Positions 8,307 through 45,215 of a DNA stretch of 54,120 bases are shown in pieces. Below the pieces are notes generated by a model, which saw nothing but the letters and a program-made list of their open reading frames with translations, had not been told where the DNA came from and searched no databases. The DNA is from Minisyncoccota bacterium (lineage in GTDB: Bacteria > Patescibacteriota > Minisyncoccia > JBAYJV01). The stretch lies in the NCBI GenBank assembly GCA_041664925.1, contig JBAYJV010000001.1:1-54120 (forward strand). The letters run 5' to 3'. Numbering within the stretch: position 1 is the stretch's first letter; the number at the start of each line of letters is the position of its first letter. The position numbers and the translations under genes were made by a program.

Positions 8307-8327
8307 AAATGCGGAGAGGGTGGGATT

Positions 8328-8347
8328 CCTGCCTGCCGGCAGGCAGG
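8328..8347. repeat. 20-nt perfect palindrome CCTGCCTGCCGGCAGGCAGG (T-loop insertion)
   Basis: gggatt[20 nt]cgaaccc here versus the uninterrupted gggattcgaaccc in the intact tRNA at 8471. Confidence 0.9.
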
Positions 8348-8376
8348 CGAACCCACGGAACCATTGCTGGTTCAAC

Positions 8377-8450
8377 AGTTTTTCCAACCACTTTTCTTTT
8401 AGAAAATGTTCGGATCCGCTCATTCATTTCATTGAAGTGAGCGGACAAGA
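8377..8450. repeat. 74-nt direct repeat R (copy A)
   Basis: 73/74 identical to 8818..8891. Contains the 8-bp hairpin TCCGCTCA..TGAGCGGA and is flanked by anticodon-loop remnants (TCTTG / AAAAACT on the minus strand). Confidence 0.9.
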
Positions 8451-8459
8451 GAATTAAAG

Positions 8460-8546
8460 CGGAGAGGGTGGGATTCGAACCCACGGAACCATTGCTGGTT
8501 CAACAGTTTTCAAGACTGTCACATTCGACCACTCTGTCACCTCTCC
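8460..8546 (-). tRNA. tRNA-Ser (anticodon UGA), class II with long variable arm
   Basis: 87 nt: GGAGAGGTGACAGAGTGGTCGAATGTGACAGTCTTGAAAACTGTTGAACCAGCAATGGTTCCGTGGGTTCGAATCCCACCCTCTCCG. Acceptor stem is 7 bp, anticodon arm ACAGT-CTTGAAA-ACTGT, T arm GTGGG-TTCGAAT-CCCAC. CCA is not encoded. Confidence 0.9.
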
Positions 8547-8563
8547 GCTTTAACTCCCTTTCC

Positions 8564-8814
8564 TTAATAATCTGTATTTTTTAATTTACTTTTTAAAATT
8601 CTTCTTCCTTGCCCTGTCTTTAATAATTTCTCTTCTGCTCTAGCATCTTTTTCATTATTAAACGCTTCGTAAAATAGAATTTTCCATGGCTTATAGGCTT
8701 TTGTAGACTTAACTTTTCCAAGATTATGAGCTATTAATCGTTCTTTTAAATTAGAACTATATCCAATATAACTTTTTTTATCTTTAAACTTTTAAGGAAA
8801 TAGACGTAATGCAT
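8564..8814 (-). pseudogene. GIY-YIG nuclease gene interrupted by a frameshift in an A7 tract
   Basis: The ATG frame gives MHYVYFLKSLKIKK and then stops. Adding one A to the A7 run (plus-strand T7 at 8773-8779) restores ...SYIGYSSNLKERLIAHNLGKVKSTKAYKPWKILFYEAFNNEKDARAEEKLLKTGQGRRILKSKLKNTDY, about 87 aa in total. Confidence 0.75.
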
Positions 8815-8817
8815 ATA

Positions 8818-8891
8818 AGTTTTTCCGACCACTTTTCTTTTAGAAAATGTTCGGATCCGCTCATTCATTTCATTGAAGTGAGCGGACAAGA
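8818..8891. repeat. 74-nt direct repeat R (copy B)
   Basis: 73/74 identical to 8377..8450. The single difference is g at 8827 versus a at 8386. Confidence 0.9.
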
Positions 8892-8906
8892 CTGTCCGAT
8901 TCGACC

Positions 8907-8926
8907 CCTGCCTGCCGGCAGGCAGG
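8907..8926. repeat. 20-nt perfect palindrome CCTGCCTGCCGGCAGGCAGG (D-loop insertion)
   Basis: ttcgacc[20 nt]actctgtcac here versus the uninterrupted ttcgaccactctgtcac in the intact tRNA. Confidence 0.9.
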
Positions 8927-8970
8927 ACTCTGTCACCTCTCCATATTACCTGCTAATTAAAAATTAAAAA

Positions 8971-10713
8971 TTATTCAGTCACCCTTGCTTTTATTCTTTT
9001 TACTCCTGCACCGACTGATTCTTGTTTTACAATTTTAAAGCTTTTCAATTCAGATGTCAATTGAATATGCGGTCCTCGACAAATTTCACATGAATAAAAA
9101 TCGTCTTGCGTTCCATTGGAACTGATTCTATAAACACTCACTCTTTCTGGATATTTCTCTTTAAAAAATCCCAACGCTCCCATTTTTACGGCTTCATCAT
9201 AAGTCGTTTCAATTCTTTCAACTTTTAAATCTTCTTTTATTTTTTGATTAACAATATTTTCTACTTGTACAATTTCATCATTCGTTAAATTTCGTCCAAA
9301 GCTAAAATCAAATCTCAGTCTTTTTTCTGAAATATCCGACCCCATCTGTTTTACCTCTTCTCCTAAAACTTCTCTTAATGCCTTATGAAGCAAATGAGTC
9401 GCTGTGTGAAGTTTAATTTCATAATCTGTTGGGTTCTCTCGAAGCCCGCCTTCTTTTTTTTCAATAACTGTTTTTGAAACTGTCTGGTGTTCTTTTTTCG
9501 CTTTTTCAAATCCTTCTTGATCCAAAGTAAATCCTCTTTCCATCAAAAGTTCCTTGGTAAGCTCTGGAGGAAAACCAAAACTTTCGTAAAGCTTAAATGC
9601 TTCATCTCCCGAAAAGATTTTTCCTTCAATTTTAGCAAGTTTTTTTTCAAGTTCCTTCGTGCCATTTAAAAGCGCTTTTTTAAACGCTACCACTTCTTTT
9701 TCAATCACAGCGATAAGACTAGTTTTATCCTTTCCAATTTCTGGCCAAAAATCGCTATAGTTTTTTACAACCTCATCAATCAAATTAATATACCATCCAT
9801 CTTTAAGATTTAATTTCATCGCTGCCCTAACTGATCTTCGTAAAATTCGTCTTAAAATATAGCCTTCTTTTAAATTTGACGGCGCTAATCCCTCGGCGAT
9901 TAAAAAGACTGAGCCACGAATATGGTCAACAACCACCCTTTCTAGTTTTTTATTTTCCTCAGTAGCTTCATAATCATTCTTTCTTAAAATCTCTAATAAA
10001 GAAGAAAACAAATCAGTTTCAAAAACTGTTTCTTTTTTTTGCATTACCCTTGTTAATCTTTCCAGTCCCATGCCCGTATCAATGCCTTTTTTATCCAATG
10101 TTGCTAATCCACCATTTTTGTCTTGGTAGTATTCGTTAAAAACAACATTCCAAATCTCAGAATTATCTAAATAAAGTTCTGTTGTCGGTCCGCACGGACC
10201 TTCTTCTCCCGTTGGTCCCCAAAAATTATCTTCTCTGCCTCGCTTGGTAATCTGATTTTCTTCAATACCTAAATTAATCCAAATATCATAAGATTCTTTA
10301 TCAAAAGGCACTTCCTTGTCGCCCGCAAAAACCGTAACTTTTAAATCTTCTTTTTTTATCTCCAGCTCCTTTGTAAAAAAATCAAAGGCAAATCCAATCG
10401 CTTCTTTTTTACAATAAGCTCCGTTAAAACAAAAATTTCCCAACATTTCCAAAAATGTCAGGTGGTCTTTGTCGCCCACTTCATCTATATCAGAAGTACG
10501 AAAACATTTTTGAATCGTTGTGATCCTTTCACTGCCCAATTCCTGTTTTGCATCTCTTTTCCCTGAAAAATAATCCTTAAATTGCTGCATGCCTGCGGTC
10601 GTCAAAAGCACCGATGGATCAGTTACATCGATAAGCGAAGAAGAGGGCATTTGTTTGTGCCCACTTTCTGCAAAAAAACTTAAGAATTTTTTTCGCAATT
10701 CTCCAGATGTCAT
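8971..10713 (-). CDS. alaS: alanine--tRNA ligase, compact form without the C-Ala domain
   Basis: 580 aa. N-terminus 'FLSFFAESGHKQMPSSSLI..DPSVLLTTAGMQQFKDYF', 'GMGLERL', and editing-site 'HTATHLLH' and 'CRGPH'. The protein ends right after the editing domain. Confidence 0.9.
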   Translation of the reverse strand: MTSGELRKKFLSFFAESGHKQMPSSSLIDVTDPSVLLTTAGMQQFKDYFSGKRDAKQELGSERITTIQKCFRTSDIDEVGDKDHLTFLEMLGNFCFNGAYCKKEAIGFAFDFFTKELEIKKEDLKVTVFAGDKEVPFDKESYDIWINLGIEENQITKRGREDNFWGPTGEEGPCGPTTELYLDNSEIWNVVFNEYYQDKNGGLATLDKKGIDTGMGLERLTRVMQKKETVFETDLFSSLLEILRKNDYEATEENKKLERVVVDHIRGSVFLIAEGLAPSNLKEGYILRRILRRSVRAAMKLNLKDGWYINLIDEVVKNYSDFWPEIGKDKTSLIAVIEKEVVAFKKALLNGTKELEKKLAKIEGKIFSGDEAFKLYESFGFPPELTKELLMERGFTLDQEGFEKAKKEHQTVSKTVIEKKEGGLRENPTDYEIKLHTATHLLHKALREVLGEEVKQMGSDISEKRLRFDFSFGRNLTNDEIVQVENIVNQKIKEDLKVERIETTYDEAVKMGALGFFKEKYPERVSVYRISSNGTQDDFYSCEICRGPHIQLTSELKSFKIVKQESVGAGVKRIKARVTE

Positions 10714-11118: not shown

Positions 11119-12258
11119 TTAACTTTCTATAATTCCGCCCCCTATCATAATTTCTCCTTTATAAAAAACAATACTTTGCCCCGGCGTAATCGCCCTCTGT
11201 AGTTCTTTGAAAGTAACTTTAATTTGATTTTTCCCCTTCGTCCGCTGAAGCTTTAGCGAAGGCGGATTGATCATTATCACACATTCCTGATCCGGCTGTC
11301 TATATCTAATTTTTGCTTGGCATTTTAATGGAAATTTCGGCTCTTCGCCTGAGATCCAGCTCAAATCTGAAGCAATCAATTCTTCTTCAAACAATGCCTC
11401 ATTTTTTCTTCCTTTGGCAACAATCAATTCATTTTTTTTAAAATCTTTTCCAATGACAAAATAGGGGATGCCCCCGCCAATTTTTATTCCTCTCCTTTGA
11501 CCAATGGTATAAGTTTCAAGACCATCATGTTTACCAATCACTTCCTTGTCAGTGGTCAAAATCTTCCCTGGCTTTGATTTAATATATTGTTTCAAAAAAT
11601 CTTCAACATTGACCTTGCCCATAAAACAAATTCCCTGAGAGTCAGGTTTATCCTTTACAGGCAAATCCCATTTTGCAGCAATTTTTCTTATTTCCGGTTT
11701 CGTATAATCGCCCACCGGAAAAAGGCAATGCTTCAGTTGCTTTTGCGTCAATGTCCATAAAAAATAACTCTGATCCTTATTCCCGTCCACCCCTTTTAAT
11801 AATGAGTATACATTCACTTTTAATTTTTCACTTTTAACTTTTAATTTTCGGCGAAGCCGAATGTAGTGGCCGGCGGCGACAAAGTCCGCTCCCATTTTGA
11901 GCGCTTGTTTTAGAAACATCCCAAACTTAATTTCCCGATTGCATTCAATATCAGGATTGGGCGTTATGCCTTTTTTATAGCCATCCAAAAAATAATTAAT
12001 CACCTTTTCTCGGTATTCTTTTGTAAAATCCCAGCTATAAAAAGGAATTGCTAATTTTGAAGCGACTTGTCTGGCGTCCTCTTCGTCTCTTTCCCACCCA
12101 CAACCGATTCCGCAGAGACCTTCCGAAGCCGCATCCCAACATTTCATAAAAACACCCACGACTTGATAGCCTTGTTCTTTTAATAAACCAGCCGTTACTG
12201 CCGAATCAACGCCACCAGAAAGTCCCACAAAAACTAATTGTTTTTTATCTTTTGACAT
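11119..12258 (-). CDS. mnmA: tRNA 2-thiouridine(34) synthase MnmA
   Basis: 379 aa. PP-loop 'GLSGGVDSAV', 'NKDQSYFLW', and C-terminal 'ITPGQSIVFYKGEIMIGGGII'. Confidence 0.9.
   Translation of the reverse strand: MSKDKKQLVFVGLSGGVDSAVTAGLLKEQGYQVVGVFMKCWDAASEGLCGIGCGWERDEEDARQVASKLAIPFYSWDFTKEYREKVINYFLDGYKKGITPNPDIECNREIKFGMFLKQALKMGADFVAAGHYIRLRRKLKVKSEKLKVNVYSLLKGVDGNKDQSYFLWTLTQKQLKHCLFPVGDYTKPEIRKIAAKWDLPVKDKPDSQGICFMGKVNVEDFLKQYIKSKPGKILTTDKEVIGKHDGLETYTIGQRRGIKIGGGIPYFVIGKDFKKNELIVAKGRKNEALFEEELIASDLSWISGEEPKFPLKCQAKIRYRQPDQECVIMINPPSLKLQRTKGKNQIKVTFKELQRAITPGQSIVFYKGEIMIGGGIIES
11234..11265. repeat. GC-rich palindromic element inserted in frame in mnmA
   Basis: ccccttcgtccgctgaagctttagcgaaggcgg has a CCTTCG..CGAAGG stem and encodes the extra 'PPSLKLQRTKG' segment, which E. 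coli MnmA lacks as I recall it. Confidence 0.55.
11814..11848. repeat. 7-nt periodic array inside the mnmA coding sequence
   Basis: cactttt|aattttt|cactttt|aactttt|aatttt encodes 'KLKVKSEKLKV', an insertion between the conserved HY.R and KDQSYFL blocks. Confidence 0.55.
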
Positions 12259-12319
12259 ATTTTAAATTATATTCCATATTATATATTTTTCAATAATCAT
12301 CGTCGTCTTGAGATAATAT

Positions 12320-12391
12320 GTCATCCTGAGCGTACTTGTGGTGAGCTTGCTTGCCCTGAATTTTGTTGAAGGGTCGAACCAGCGAAGGATC
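12320..12391. repeat. 'TCATCCTGAGCG...CGAAGGATC' hairpin-family element (expanded copy)
   Basis: Outer arms gtcatcctgagcg / agcgaaggatcc enclose about 45 nt. Lies between ncRNA-2 and mnmA. Confidence 0.5.
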
Positions 12392-12474
12392 CCAAGCATA
12401 GCTGCTACATCTCGAGATTCTCCCTTTTCTCCTTTTTCTCTCTTTTACCCCTTGTGTCCCTTTGTGTTTCTTAT

Positions 12475-12814
12475 AAAACAAAAGCCAGGGTTATCGTACC
12501 TGGCTCCGCGGAATCGGGAGGTATTCTTTACTTTCCCTATCCACTAACCTACGCTCGCTGACGACCCAACGAGTAGTTTTTCTCTTAGAAGAGGAAGGCC
12601 GGGTTTTTGAGCCGATCGTACACCGCATCACGCACCGTGTTACCATCCGGCTCGATGGGCCTGAATCGCTCAGGCAAGCGTACTGCCGTCAATGCGTTCT
12701 TCCGTCTAAAGTCCCCTTATGTAATCCGATACGGTCGTCTCGGGGGAGTCGAGACCATCCTCAAGATTGCGGAACGTGCGCCTTCTTTTCGGACGACCCA
12801 GTCTTCCATCATCA
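12475..12814 (-). ncRNA. unclassified structured RNA, about 340 nt (ncRNA-2)
   Basis: Consensus promoter at 12821-12848 and an intrinsic terminator (GCCAGG-9 nt-CCTGGC + TTTTGTTTT, 12475-12504). About 50% GC in a roughly 35% GC genome, with no credible ORF. Long-range complementarity between GGAAGACTGGGT (5') and ACCCGGCCTTCC (about 250 nt downstream). Confidence 0.6.
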
Positions 12815-12820
12815 CTTATC

Positions 12821-12848
12821 ATTATACTCCTTTTTTAAATAATGTCAA
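12821..12848 (-). promoter_or_regulatory. consensus sigma70 promoter (copy 1 of an identical 32-nt block, 12820-12851)
   Basis: Minus strand TTGACA - 16 nt - TATAAT. Confidence 0.75.
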
Positions 12849-12874
12849 TAGATAATGATTGATTTTATTGTAAT

Positions 12875-13004
12875 AAAAACAAAAGGGTCAGGATTTACGC
12901 ACCTGACCCGCAAGCGACAACCTAGTTACCGCTCGCATTTAAATGCGCCCCTAATCCGTAGGAGTACAGTGGTCTACTTCTATTATATCACATTAACAGA
13001 TATT
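12875..13004 (-). ncRNA. unclassified small RNA, about 130 nt (ncRNA-1)
   Basis: Consensus promoter at 13011-13038 and terminator GGGTCAGG-9 nt-CCTGACCC + TTTTGTTTTT (12875-12909). Internal hairpins are CGCATTTAAATGCG and GCGAGCG..CGCTTGC. Confidence 0.55.
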
Positions 13005-13010
13005 TATTCC

Positions 13011-13038
13011 ATTATACTCCTTTTTTAAATAATGTCAA
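13011..13038 (-). promoter_or_regulatory. consensus sigma70 promoter (copy 2 of the identical 32-nt block, 13010-13041)
   Basis: Minus strand TTGACA - 16 nt - TATAAT. The 32 nt are identical to 12820-12851. Confidence 0.75.
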
Positions 13039-13084
13039 TAGTTTTAATCTTTCTTGTCGAAATTATTGAGATTTAGAAAGATTT

Positions 13085-13106
13085 ATCCTGAGCGAAGTCG
13101 AAGGAT
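13085..13106. repeat. 'ATCCTGAGCGAAGTCGAAGGAT' hairpin-family element (minimal copy)
   Basis: ATCCT/AGGAT stem. Same family as 12320, 13702, 40213 and 53474. Confidence 0.5.
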
Positions 13107-13121
13107 TACTCTTTTTAAATT

Positions 13122-13152
13122 AAAAAGAGAGGATCCGTTCTTGGACCCTCTC
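13122..13152 (-). terminator. rho-independent terminator
   Basis: Minus strand GAGAGGGTCC-aagaac-GGATCCTCTC + TTTTT, 3' of the 159-aa gene. Confidence 0.7.
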
Positions 13153-13166
13153 GGCGTACTTTTCGT

Positions 13167-13646
13167 TTAGCCACCAGTTTCCATTCCGTAAGTCGCCGGC
13201 AAGCGATCGCGATGGACATAATAGAATTGCAACATTGGGTTTCCTCCAGACGTAGGAGACATAATGATTTGAAGAATGACAATGTTCTGTGACAAAAAAT
13301 CCCATCTATTGATTTTACTTAAATTAACATCATGAGTAATCTCGTCGGCATTTGAACGAAAAAGAGATTCAAAAAATATATCTATAAATGATTTTCCTTC
13401 TATTGATGTGTAGATTATGTCATCAACATATCTTACATCAAGAATGTTTACAACTCTGATAGCCTCTATGTCTTGATACAAAGCACTAGAAGCATTCACT
13501 TGATTCGTCGTGTCATTAAGTGTTGACCCAACAATTAATCCGAAAATAAACCAACCAGCCTGAGCTTTTGCCTGTACCACTGCGCCAAAGGTAATGCCCA
13601 GCACCAGCGCCAAACAAACTCCGACGACTAACAACCTCTTTTTCAT
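13167..13646 (-). CDS. secreted or membrane orphan protein (GC-richer cassette)
   Basis: 159 aa with signal peptide 'MKKRLLVVGVCLALVLGITFGAVVQAKA', an AGGAGGG SD, and its own promoter and terminator. Confidence 0.6.
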   Translation of the reverse strand: MKKRLLVVGVCLALVLGITFGAVVQAKAQAGWFIFGLIVGSTLNDTTNQVNASSALYQDIEAIRVVNILDVRYVDDIIYTSIEGKSFIDIFFESLFRSNADEITHDVNLSKINRWDFLSQNIVILQIIMSPTSGGNPMLQFYYVHRDRLPATYGMETGG

Positions 13647-13792: not shown

Positions 13793-13847
13793 CCGTTTTC
13801 GACAAGAAAAACACGCCTATCTCTAGGCATGCTTTTTATTTTGTCCA

Positions 13848-13880
13848 GATTCTAACTTCTAACTTCTAGATTCTAATTTT
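13848..13880. repeat. 7-nt periodic array
   Basis: ttctaac|ttctaac|ttctaga|ttctaat abuts the stop codon of the PKD gene. Confidence 0.65.
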
Positions 13881-15462: not shown

Positions 15463-15822
15463 TCAGGAACTACCCATCGTTCTCATTTTTCTTGCCATCT
15501 TTCTGGCCATTCTTTTGGCCACCGCAATCTTCGCGCTCCTCCATGCCGTTATACACAACCAGGCAAGTAGAGGAACATAAATGAACTGCACGATGGCTGC
15601 CAATGCGACCGTCCTCGGCCAGAACCACCACACATCAGTTGGTACTCTTTTGTCAAAATGATTCACCAAGTACAGAGAACCAATAACCGCTGCCCAAGAA
15701 AACAGTTGGTATGCTCCGTACGACAACCGACGAATCTTTCCTGTTCGAGTGATTCCAACGCGCCGAGCTTGCCTCAGAAACTTCCCGAATTTCCGCAATG
15801 CCTTCATCCACTCCTCCTTCAT
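15463..15822 (-). CDS. small membrane orphan protein (GC-richer cassette)
   Basis: 119-aa ORF with two hydrophobic helices and an Arg/Lys-rich tail. AAGGAGGAG sits 3 nt before the second ATG (15807), so 114 aa is more likely. Confidence 0.6.
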   Translation of the reverse strand: MKEEWMKALRKFGKFLRQARRVGITRTGKIRRLSYGAYQLFSWAAVIGSLYLVNHFDKRVPTDVWWFWPRTVALAAIVQFIYVPLLAWLCITAWRSAKIAVAKRMARKMARKMRTMGSS

Positions 15823-40171: not shown

Positions 40172-40213
40172 AGAAGTTAGAAGTTAGAAGTTAGAAGTTA
40201 GAATTAAGAATAG
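40172..40213. repeat. 7-nt periodic array (AGAAGTT x4 + variants)
   Basis: agaagtt|agaagtt|agaagtt|agaagtt|agaatta|agaatag, in opposite orientation to the other arrays. Confidence 0.7.
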
Positions 40214-40253
40214 TCATTCTGACCCTGTACAGTAATGGTGCAGGGGAAGAATC
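40213..40253. repeat. hairpin-family element
   Basis: gtcattctga[ccctgtac-agtaatg-gtgcaggg]gaagaatc. Confidence 0.5.
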
Positions 40254-41555: not shown

Positions 41556-41589
41556 CCTTTTTAGTTGATTTTATAAAACTTAAACAAAT

Positions 41590-41670
41590 AAATCGGAGAC
41601 TCGGCCTCCGATTTATTAAAACCAGTCTGTGTTTTAAAGAAATATGTGGGAGGCTCAGCCTCCCACATAT
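41590..41670. repeat. ~81-nt double-hairpin terminator module (copy L)
   Basis: aaatcggag-actcggc-ctccgattt ... tctgtgttttaaaga ... atatgtgggagg-ctcag-cctcccacatat. About 75-80% identical to 42628..42708. Confidence 0.7.
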
Positions 41671-42581: not shown

Positions 42582-42627
42582 GCTTTTTAGGAAAAATAAG
42601 CCACTTTAGTGCAATTCAAAAACAAAA

Positions 42628-42708
42628 AAATCGGAGGCTTAGCTCCAGATTTATCAAGACTGATCTGTGTTTTAAAGATATATGTTGGAGGTCTCACCTC
42701 TAACATAT
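42628..42708. repeat. ~81-nt double-hairpin terminator module (copy R)
   Basis: Begins at the stop codon of the 328-aa membrane-protein gene. The second hairpin is followed by TTTTTTTGTTTTT on the minus strand. Confidence 0.7.
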
Positions 42709-45143: not shown

Positions 45144-45168
45144 TTTTTTAAAATCCTAAGCTGTTTCG

Positions 45169-45188
45169 CCTGCCTGCCGGCAGGCAGG
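45169..45188. repeat. 20-nt perfect palindrome CCTGCCTGCCGGCAGGCAGG (intergenic copy)
   Basis: Identical to the copies at 8328 and 8907. It is embedded in a heptad-like tract inside the larger hairpin AAATCCTAAGC..GCTTCGGATTT, 3' of the phosphomutase gene. Confidence 0.9.
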
Positions 45189-45215
45189 GATTTCTGATTT
45201 CGTGCTTCGGATTTA

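Follow-up and report, generated by a model that had tools for sequence, protein, structure and literature searches.

A candidate family of paralogous noncoding RNAs in the gap upstream of mnmA in a Patescibacteria lineage

INTRODUCTION

Trans-acting bacterial small RNAs (sRNAs) can occur as paralogous families, such as OmrA/OmrB, Qrr1-5 and PrrF1/F2, whose members lie in tandem and have one conserved module in common. For the Patescibacteria, also known as the Candidate Phyla Radiation (CPR), almost nothing is, to our knowledge, known of noncoding RNAs (ncRNAs) beyond rRNA, tRNA, and a diverged RNA of ribonuclease P (RNase P). It has been established that GC-rich intergenic regions of AT-rich genomes are enriched for structured ncRNAs (PMC6429828). 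Here, we describe a GC-rich gap upstream of mnmA in a 54-kb Patescibacteria fragment of ~35% GC (contig JBAYJV010000001.1, positions 1 to 54,120; hereafter, "the window"), which holds two adjacent units on the minus strand that we call R1 and R2. These units are very probably real ncRNA genes that belong to no known housekeeping family. With moderate confidence, we further propose that they represent a young, lineage-restricted family of paralogous ncRNAs in Parcubacteria-type Patescibacteria, made as separate transcripts and most likely acting in trans.

RESULTS

Two predicted transcription units in a GC-rich gap

The gap between the start codon of mnmA (ATG at 12258) and the next open reading frame (ORF) of at least 120 amino acids (13167-13646) measures 908 bp (12259-13166), and the GC content at 12500-12800 reaches 0.55-0.57, compared with about 0.30-0.40 in the flanks. 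The neighboring genes encode a PKD-domain protein, a 159-aa secreted protein with no Pfam match (ORF 13167-13646), MnmA, and AlaS, with the mnmA-alaS operon lying directly downstream of R2 on the same strand. Mechanically called ORFs of 40-82 aa are present in the gap, none of which is conserved. An earlier interpretation made from the letters of the window alone (hereafter, "the sequence-only reading") had singled out this gap as about 900 bp of GC-rich DNA without a credible ORF, and this description held. It had also pointed to a 32-nt block, CATTATACTCCTTTTTTAAATAATGTCAATAG, that we indeed find in exactly two copies in the window (12820-12851 and 13010-13041), both of which read TTGACA-16 nt-TATAAT on the minus strand, as it had stated, and match the consensus at 12 of 12 positions. 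No other perfect sigma-70 match occurs in the 54 kb, and 100 shuffles yielded no match to the 28-nt promoter core. In copy A (13011-13038), the TTGACA lies at 13038-13033 and, after the 16-nt spacer, the TATAAT at 13016-13011; in copy B (12821-12848), which would be the native R2 promoter and is kept in five of five R2-bearing genomes, the two elements lie at 12848-12843 and 12826-12821.

The first unit, R1 (12875-13004, minus strand), would be ~130 nt long if transcribed from copy A, which is the size that the sequence-only reading had assigned. R1 additionally carries an extended -10 promoter of its own (TGATATAAT, 12982-12990), which is kept as TGGTATAAT in a relative (L081) where the TTGACA promoter is missing; starting there, near 12975, the RNA would measure ~100 nt, and this is likely the native size. 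Its predicted layout consists of a single-stranded 5′ end, a bulged hairpin (HP-a, ~12967-12945), a 12-bp hairpin (HP-b, 12939-12913), and an intrinsic terminator (12875-12909) made of GGGUCAGG, a 9-nt loop, CCUGACCC, and the U-run UUUUGUUUUU. The second unit, R2 (12475-12814, minus strand), extends for ~335-340 nt from a predicted start just 3′ of copy B to a terminator at 12475-12503 (GCCAGG/CCUGGC with a 9-nt loop and a U-run), in agreement with the about 340 nt proposed before. R2 can be divided into a 5′ domain of ~215 nt (12593-12807; 55-57% GC), closed by a long-range helix, and a 3′ module (12475-12582) with its own HP-a (CUACUCGUUG..CAGCGAGCGUAG), a variable HP-b, and the terminator. 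Each unit thus ends in a hairpin followed by a U-run (12909-12875 and 12503-12475), as anticipated. Both hairpins appear in the minimum-free-energy folds of R1 and R2, and our terminator scan overlooked them solely because their loops are 9 nt long.

Some further sequence features border these units. In every genome, the sequence that directly follows the R2 terminator is a purine-only tract built from ATAAGGGA-like units (window, 12420-12474; L083:9788-9890; L081:2754-2930), and L081 has about four tandem GGGATAAAA units. Similar AGAAGTTAG repeats occur elsewhere in the window at 13829-13879 and 40172-40217. Further toward mnmA, the spacer of the window (12300-12420) has an insertion of ~115 nt, richer in GC, that relatives lack. 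This insertion and a segment upstream of copy A (13085-13107) have ATCCTTCG...CGCTCAGGAT in common, where CGCTCAGGAT is found only at these two places in the window (0.02 expected by chance).

Orthologs are conserved as RNAs

Closer relatives were gathered through MnmA homologs at 68-90% identity, and their contigs (denoted by L and a number) were retrieved. We found R2 in two other species, represented by L083 (also L113 and L116-118) and by L081/L082 (also L112), and an ortholog of R1 in L081. Like R2 of the window, the R2 orthologs lie between the PKD-protein gene and mnmA. They also have the same promoter and terminator, and both elements are intact in all five genomes when the shortened forms described below are included. 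Across species, R2 is 86-89% identical, compared with 72-74% at the third codon positions of mnmA. The 81 variable columns of R2 are split 24/28/29 over the three codon phases (p = 0.77), i.e., without 3-nt periodicity, and each reading frame is broken by indels or stops in at least one species. A 31-aa ORF at the 5′ end of R2 was rejected as coding, as its frame is lost in L081, and so were antisense ORFs: Where a conserved antisense frame was sought in the orthologs of R1 and R2, the frames were interrupted by stops. Overall, the homologs display covariation and frame-breaking indels, with no codon-like conservation, and R1 and R2 appear to be ncRNA genes under purifying selection, whose transcription we infer.

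R1 and R2 have a 3′ module in common

We aligned seven sequences, namely the two R1 copies, the three 3′ domains of long R2, and two short forms of R2. All seven display a UACUC-stem-loop-stem-GAGCG hairpin with a 2-nt bulge (HP-a), a variable hairpin (HP-b), and a terminator of the form CCAGGU(A/G)CG..AA.CCUG. In this alignment, 97% of the cells are paired, versus 30-53% when the partners are slid, and HP-a displays swaps between CG and GC and between UA and GC among the copies. A covariance model of the module recovered seven of seven copies at 69-97 bits and, over 1.17 Mb of Patescibacteria loci, gave no match beyond these seven. Taken alone, the likeness between the R1 and R2 terminators is borderline (similarity score of 35; shuffles average 19.7 and reach up to 35), and it appears convincing only together with the seven-sequence alignment. 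R1 and the 3′ third of R2 are hence paralogs. The sequence-only reading had regarded them as two separate structured RNAs; they do look like stand-alone genes, but they are paralogs with a common 3′ module rather than independent inventions.

Fold of the R2 5′ domain

The 5′ domain is closed by the helix GGAAGACUGGGU (12807-12796)/ACCCGGCCUUCC (12604-12593). The long-range complementarity noticed earlier corresponds to this predicted helix, which spans about 200 nt and not about 250 nt. A second long-range helix within the domain is formed by ACCGUAUCG/UGAUGCGGU, and in both helices we observed solely pair-preserving changes among homologs. The two nested hairpins that had been read from the sequence, GUCUCG-ACUCCCC-CGAGAC and GAGCCG..CGGCUC, are both present in R2, and the first of these, GUCUCG/CGAGAC, becomes GUUCUG/CAGAAC in homologs, which amounts to three compensatory pairs. 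The domain also has candidate loop pseudoknots, with UCCCC/GGGGA and UUCCG/CGGAA as the proposed pairings. Both copies of a previously noted 9-mer repeat, UGGGUCGUC, exist (12800-12792 and 12568-12560), but the second reads UGAGUUGUC in relatives, and the repeat is probably incidental because this copy is not conserved. Covariation support is clear for HP-a, for the terminator, and for one hairpin of the 5′ domain, and the R1 fold has a z score of -3.7. Since only three distinct long forms exist, the fold of the 5′ domain is provisional.

Short forms and relocation of R1

At the same locus, the two sister species L090 and L115 carry a short R2 of 140 nt that lacks the ~215-nt 5′ domain. This short form has the same promoter and the same 5′ sequence (GAGGAUGGAAG..UGGGUCGU), followed by UUAACUCCUCCUUCC, which replaces the domain, and by the same 3′ module. 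Because the L090 and L115 copies are 93% identical, the short R2 would seem to be a maintained gene and not debris. In a tree of MnmA, the five R2-bearing genomes form a clade with 100% bootstrap support, within which the long forms cluster (65% support) and the short forms are basal. This basal branching of the short forms weakly favors a gain of the 5′ domain over a loss.

The arrangement of R1 points to a rearrangement as well. Copy A, together with ~90 nt on its upstream side, is orthologous to the R2 promoter region of L083, and over these ~90 nt the two sequences are nearly identical. In L081, R1 is located elsewhere, upstream of a homolog of the 159-aa gene, with only its own extended -10 (TGGTATAAT). 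These observations suggest that a 158-nt cassette (12852-13009, minus strand, between the 32-nt repeats), consisting of the R1 -10, the RNA body, the terminator, and ~25 nt of trailing sequence, was inserted just after the -10 of R2, duplicating the promoter. The two RNAs had been described as being driven by an identical promoter. The blocks are indeed identical, but they result from a recent local duplication linked to the relocation of the R1 cassette, rather than from a shared regulatory design.

Distribution of the family

Searching the whole window against Rfam (4227 families) at the gathering threshold gave no match to R1 or R2, and searches at E<=10 on 951 nt (the gap) and on 351 nt (R2, listed down to 8 bits) assigned no RNA family. 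R1 and R2 were equally unmatched when Rfam was run on relatives (four at E<=1 and seven at the gathering threshold), and ARAGORN detected no transfer-messenger RNA (tmRNA) and only a tRNA-Ser in the window. Neither RNA is therefore assigned to a known housekeeping family, which bears out the verdict of the sequence-only reading that RNase P RNA, tmRNA, signal recognition particle (SRP) RNA, 6S RNA, and T-box do not fit.

We also examined a synteny set of 80 GTDB species representatives fetched through MnmA, in which the best MnmA matches were metagenome-assembled genomes labeled as Parcubacteria and Saccharibacteria, at no more than 53% identity; nhmmer found neither R1 nor R2 in 0.84 Mb of these loci. 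A metagenome-wide scan for the most conserved core, GACGGCAGTACG-N15-23-CCCATCGNGCC, returned only two known JGI contigs and three chance coding matches, although diverged homologs may have escaped this exact-match pattern. Scans of IMG/VR with five patterns gave nothing or chance coding matches, BLASTN with R2 as the query matched neither phage records nor E. coli genomes, and matches to an HP-a regular expression in L016, L035, L050, and L051 proved to be coding sequence or unrelated. We found no account of an RNA of this type in the literature on CPR. Outgroups with 70-73% MnmA identity either lack any element in the slot or have small ORFs only. Within the data reached, the family appears confined to one genus-level clade of five genomes.

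Other RNA-like units were seen at the same position in a more distant relative, L093 (68% MnmA identity). Its slot contains two different promoter-terminator units (9186-9425 and 9500-9722) without an Rfam match, whose folds are far better than those of shuffled sequences (z scores of -4.2 and -6.4). In each, a long helix encloses several hairpins; within the first, GAAGCAGCC bears a faint likeness to domain IV of SRP RNA. The region between the PKD-protein gene and mnmA thus appears to be an ncRNA gene island.

Other elements in the window and its relatives

The tRNA-Ser of the window (8459-8546, minus strand) is surrounded by repeats: A 35-nt exact copy of its inside (8476-8510) is found at 8348-8382, a 74-nt repeat of 99% identity flanks it (8377-8450 and 8818-8891), and the palindrome CCTGCCTGCCGGCAGGCAGG occurs at 8324-8347 and 8907-8930, as well as at 45165-45191. 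The tRNA-Ser repeats and palindrome (8324-8930) look like integration/excision scars or repetitive extragenic palindrome (REP)-like elements. In relatives, a prophage-like block follows right after the tRNA downstream of alaS (L084:13556-21173, L085:7423-11783, and L091:14382-18781), with a cargo of serine recombinase, terminase, N6/N4 methyltransferases, and ParB; a LOOT RNA (RF03000, 91-93 bits) is also part of this block in L084 (16209-16328, minus strand) and in L091 (19300-19421, plus strand).

A different GC-rich gap of the window (15463-15807, minus strand; 46-50% GC) contains a 114-aa ORF with a Shine-Dalgarno sequence and is not an RNA locus; the protein has predicted membrane helices, an arginine-/lysine-rich tail, and no Pfam match, and the gene has its own promoter and terminator. 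This ORF and a bestrophin-like gene stand in the window at the position where relatives have a Y1-transposase gene (PF01797, IS200/RAYT-like), just upstream of the PKD-protein gene (L083:6949-7638, L115:7248-7967, and L116:7059-7748). The mnmA gene of L083 (9891-11083) is split into ORFs of 37 and 360 aa, probably by an assembly frameshift; three other contigs of that species (e.g., L116:10001-11194) have it intact, at 397 aa. Last, an 89-nt repeat of 76% identity is found in two neighboring intergenic regions of the window (41582-41670 and 42620-42708), with two GC-rich hairpins in each copy.

DISCUSSION

A paralogous family with a modular 5′ element

In the explanation that we favor, the family is built on a core module of ~100 nt, comprising the 2-nt-bulge hairpin with its UACUC/GAGCG flanks, a freely varying HP-b, and the characteristic terminator. 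R1 would be this module alone, and R2 would be the module preceded by a 5′ element and driven by a perfect consensus promoter. The 5′ element would be a simple hairpin in two species and a multi-helix domain of ~215 nt, probably pseudoknotted, in three species including that of the window. Placement of the R1 cassette between the R2 promoter and R2 would have duplicated the promoter and left R1 with two promoters in the window genome. The consensus promoters would support high-level expression of R1 and R2, with termination at their own terminators, and the resulting stable, structured RNAs may act in trans. A common protein or RNA partner could use the conserved bulged hairpin HP-a as a handle, while R2 may have its 5′ domain as an extra module for binding or sensing. 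We know of no Hfq-/ProQ-type chaperone or target in this lineage.

Several points weigh against this explanation. Transcription, RNA ends, and abundance are all predicted from sequence, and the trans-acting mechanism, with a putative partner, target, or ligand, is a proposed one. The minimum-free-energy fold of R2, taken by itself, is ordinary for its composition (z = -1.4), as is the value for the short form (z = +0.3). Aside from the elements with clear covariation, the 5′ domain rests on three similar sequences with mostly one-sided changes: The distinct long forms number three, all about 86-90% identical, and the structure was derived from the same sequences that were used to test it. Finally, the narrow range, the presence or absence of a domain, and the rearranged, variable locus could fit a decaying or selfish element.

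Alternative explanations

A bolder proposal is that the 5′ domain of R2 represents an undescribed class of functional RNA (a ribozyme, or a ligand- or protein-binding domain) and that an ancestral sRNA of ~140 nt acquired it through grafting into its 5′ hairpin, in one genus-level Patescibacteria clade. Such grafting fits gain rather than loss because the MnmA tree places the short forms basally, albeit with weak support, and we regard it as possible but improbable. If true, the grafted domain would present a small RNA caught in the middle of gaining a large structured domain.

Also unlikely, and a little more doubtful, is the idea that R1 and R2 came with a mobile or fast-turnover element in a variable hotspot, either as its cargo or as what is left of it, with little or no cellular function and with the 5′ domain as a recently captured fragment. 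The slot between the PKD-protein gene and mnmA does differ in every lineage examined: Some have nothing there, and others have small ORFs, DUF5701, or RNAs of another kind. R1 has changed its position with respect to the 159-aa gene and is flanked by the 32-nt duplication; the 5′ domain is present in some members and missing from others; and the family was seen in a single five-genome clade. However, R2 is conserved well above the level of synonymous sites, the R1/R2 family shows compensatory changes, and promoter and terminator persist in each of the five genomes. Furthermore, no transposase, integrase, or terminal repeats lie next to the units in the window, and the phage and IMG/VR collections gave no match.

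We consider it quite improbable that R2, perhaps along with R1, works in cis as a leader, with a terminator that governs how much transcription continues into the tRNA-related mnmA-alaS operon, be it as a riboswitch, as a T-box-like element, or as an attenuator that depends on a peptide. The position of R2 directly upstream of this operon, on the same strand and with a terminator at its end, is what a leader would require. Moreover, a mini-ORF with several substitutions at third codon positions can be discerned in its conserved 5′ end (MEDWVV-stop in the short forms), and AUGGUAAC bears a faint likeness to the T-box UGGUACC. Yet, mnmA has a separate promoter (TTGAAA-16 nt-TATAAT, 12266-12293, minus strand), the -10 of which (TATAAT, 12271-12266) ends 7 nt before the ATG, with no Shine-Dalgarno sequence, in an arrangement of leaderless type kept in five of five relatives examined. 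As the -10 ends so close to the ATG, the mnmA mRNA is probably leaderless, and R2 would then not be needed as its leader. Between the R2 terminator and the mnmA promoter lies a purine-rich spacer of variable length (103-216 nt; from the R2 terminator to mnmA, the window has 216 nt), no alternative antiterminator pairing with the R2 terminator is evident, and outgroups with the same mnmA-alaS operon lack the R2 element. R1 precedes a different gene in L081, where the mini-ORF frame is also broken after 12 codons; the MEDWVV pattern is equally explained by helix constraints. T-box and riboswitch families gave no Rfam match.

Housekeeping RNAs deserve a closer comparison. RNase P RNA, which cleaves the 5′ leader of pre-tRNA, is the product of an essential single-copy gene; its P4 helix contains a universally bulged U, is flanked by CR-I (GAGGAAAGUCC) and CR-V (ACAGAAnCCGGCUUA), is preceded on the 5′ side by P1-P3, and is followed by P5/P7 with the specificity domain. 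That R2 would be a highly diverged RNA of this kind, foremost RNase P RNA but also tmRNA, SRP RNA, or 6S RNA, with R1 perhaps another, seems to us very unlikely. R2 does resemble RNase P RNA (RF00010/RF00011) in being a stand-alone, GC-rich RNA with a long-range helix, in having a length (~330 nt) within the RNase P RNA range, and in its very strong promoter. Its closing helix GGAAGACUGGGU/ACCCGGCCUUCC, which follows CAAAAA, has a loose likeness to P4 with CR-I (GGAAAGUCCGGG) and CR-V (ACAGAACCCGGCUU), its strands being similar to the P4 strands (GGAAG.CUGGG / A-rich, then CCCGGC.UU), and the same slot in L093 holds two other unassigned structured RNAs. R2 also comes from a phylum where Rfam often misses rnpB: Diverged CPR RNase P RNAs exist that are missed at default cutoffs and call for lowered thresholds with Rfam models (PMC8172020).

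Against this, the models of RNase P RNA, tmRNA, SRP RNA, and 6S RNA gave no match at E<=10, even on the 351 nt of R2 listed down to 8 bits. The predicted transcript starts only about 8-12 nt before the helix (the -10 ends 13 nt before it), which leaves no room for P1-P3. The P4-like helix is continuous and lacks the bulged U, the candidate position being A-C in the window, A-U in L083, and G-U in L081; after its 5′ strand comes a closed local hairpin (CGUCC...GGAUG) in place of P5/P7. The CR-I string was sought in R2 and is absent, and R2 is likewise devoid of CR-II/III/IV, carrying instead a 110-nt sRNA-like 3′ module that RNase P RNA does not have. In L090 and L115, the orthologous gene has none of the 5′ domain, i.e., the domain is dispensable in two sister species, and R2 is absent at this locus in outgroups. 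The sequence-only reading had voiced doubt about its degenerate P4-like pair, and the absence of the domain that carries this pair from two sister species upholds that doubt. Of the other candidates, tmRNA (with its tRNA-like domain of T-arm and CCA-proximal acceptor stem, and its tag frame) was rejected on negative ARAGORN and Rfam searches of the window. SRP RNA, whose domain IV combines a GNAR tetraloop with conserved loops of the symmetric and asymmetric type (GGAAGCAGCC), has no Rfam match, and the nearest string, GGAAGAACGC, is not conserved, reading GGGGGACGAA in L081. 6S RNA, a long irregular rod with a large central bubble, has no Rfam match either, and the predicted folds of R1 and R2 are multi-branched rather than rod-like.

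A retron msr-msd or an OMEGA (IscB/TnpB) guide RNA was rejected for want of an adjacent reverse transcriptase or IscB/TnpB and of any HEARO or other Rfam match, and a type I toxin-antitoxin antisense RNA was rejected because the opposite-strand frames of the R1/R2 orthologs hold stops.

Significance and comparison with known systems

As paralogous, probably trans-acting ncRNAs, R1 and R2 would add to CPR genomes a family that is new to Rfam and has clear gene boundaries. They offer a natural allelic series, consisting of the module alone, the module with a hairpin, and the module with a 215-nt domain, and therefore a tractable case for the gain or loss of structured RNA domains. Should the 5′ domain have a defined activity, it would constitute a new class of large bacterial ncRNA. 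The locus also carries a warning, in that GC-rich, P4-like RNAs in CPR genomes need model support before they are annotated as RNase P RNA. The value of the family is limited by its very narrow distribution and by the lack of a functional handle.

Compared with OmrA/OmrB, Qrr1-5, and PrrF1/F2, R1 and R2 are similarly neighbors that have a hairpin-terminator module in common and differ elsewhere, and R1 is sRNA-sized, with a sigma-70 promoter and a Rho-independent terminator. Unlike in those sRNAs, the conserved part of R1 and R2 is a structured hairpin and not a single-stranded seed, and the 215-nt structured domain of R2 resembles no base-pairing sRNA. The orphan large ncRNAs, i.e., the raiA motif RNA (ModT), OLE, ROOL, and GOLLD (PMC6429828, PMC8632094, PMC11706538), provide the other comparison: Like these, R1 and R2 are GC-rich and intergenic, have their own promoter and terminator, fold into multiple helices without coding potential, and likewise have no assigned biochemical function. 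They have no sequence or structure match to these RNAs in Rfam, and while the raiA-type orphan RNAs are found in hundreds to thousands of species, the R1/R2 family is found in five genomes. R1 and R2 accordingly form a new orphan bacterial ncRNA family of a familiar kind, located in a GC-rich intergenic region, with an R2 of unusual size and, unlike the raiA-type RNAs, with a modular polymorphism of short and long forms.

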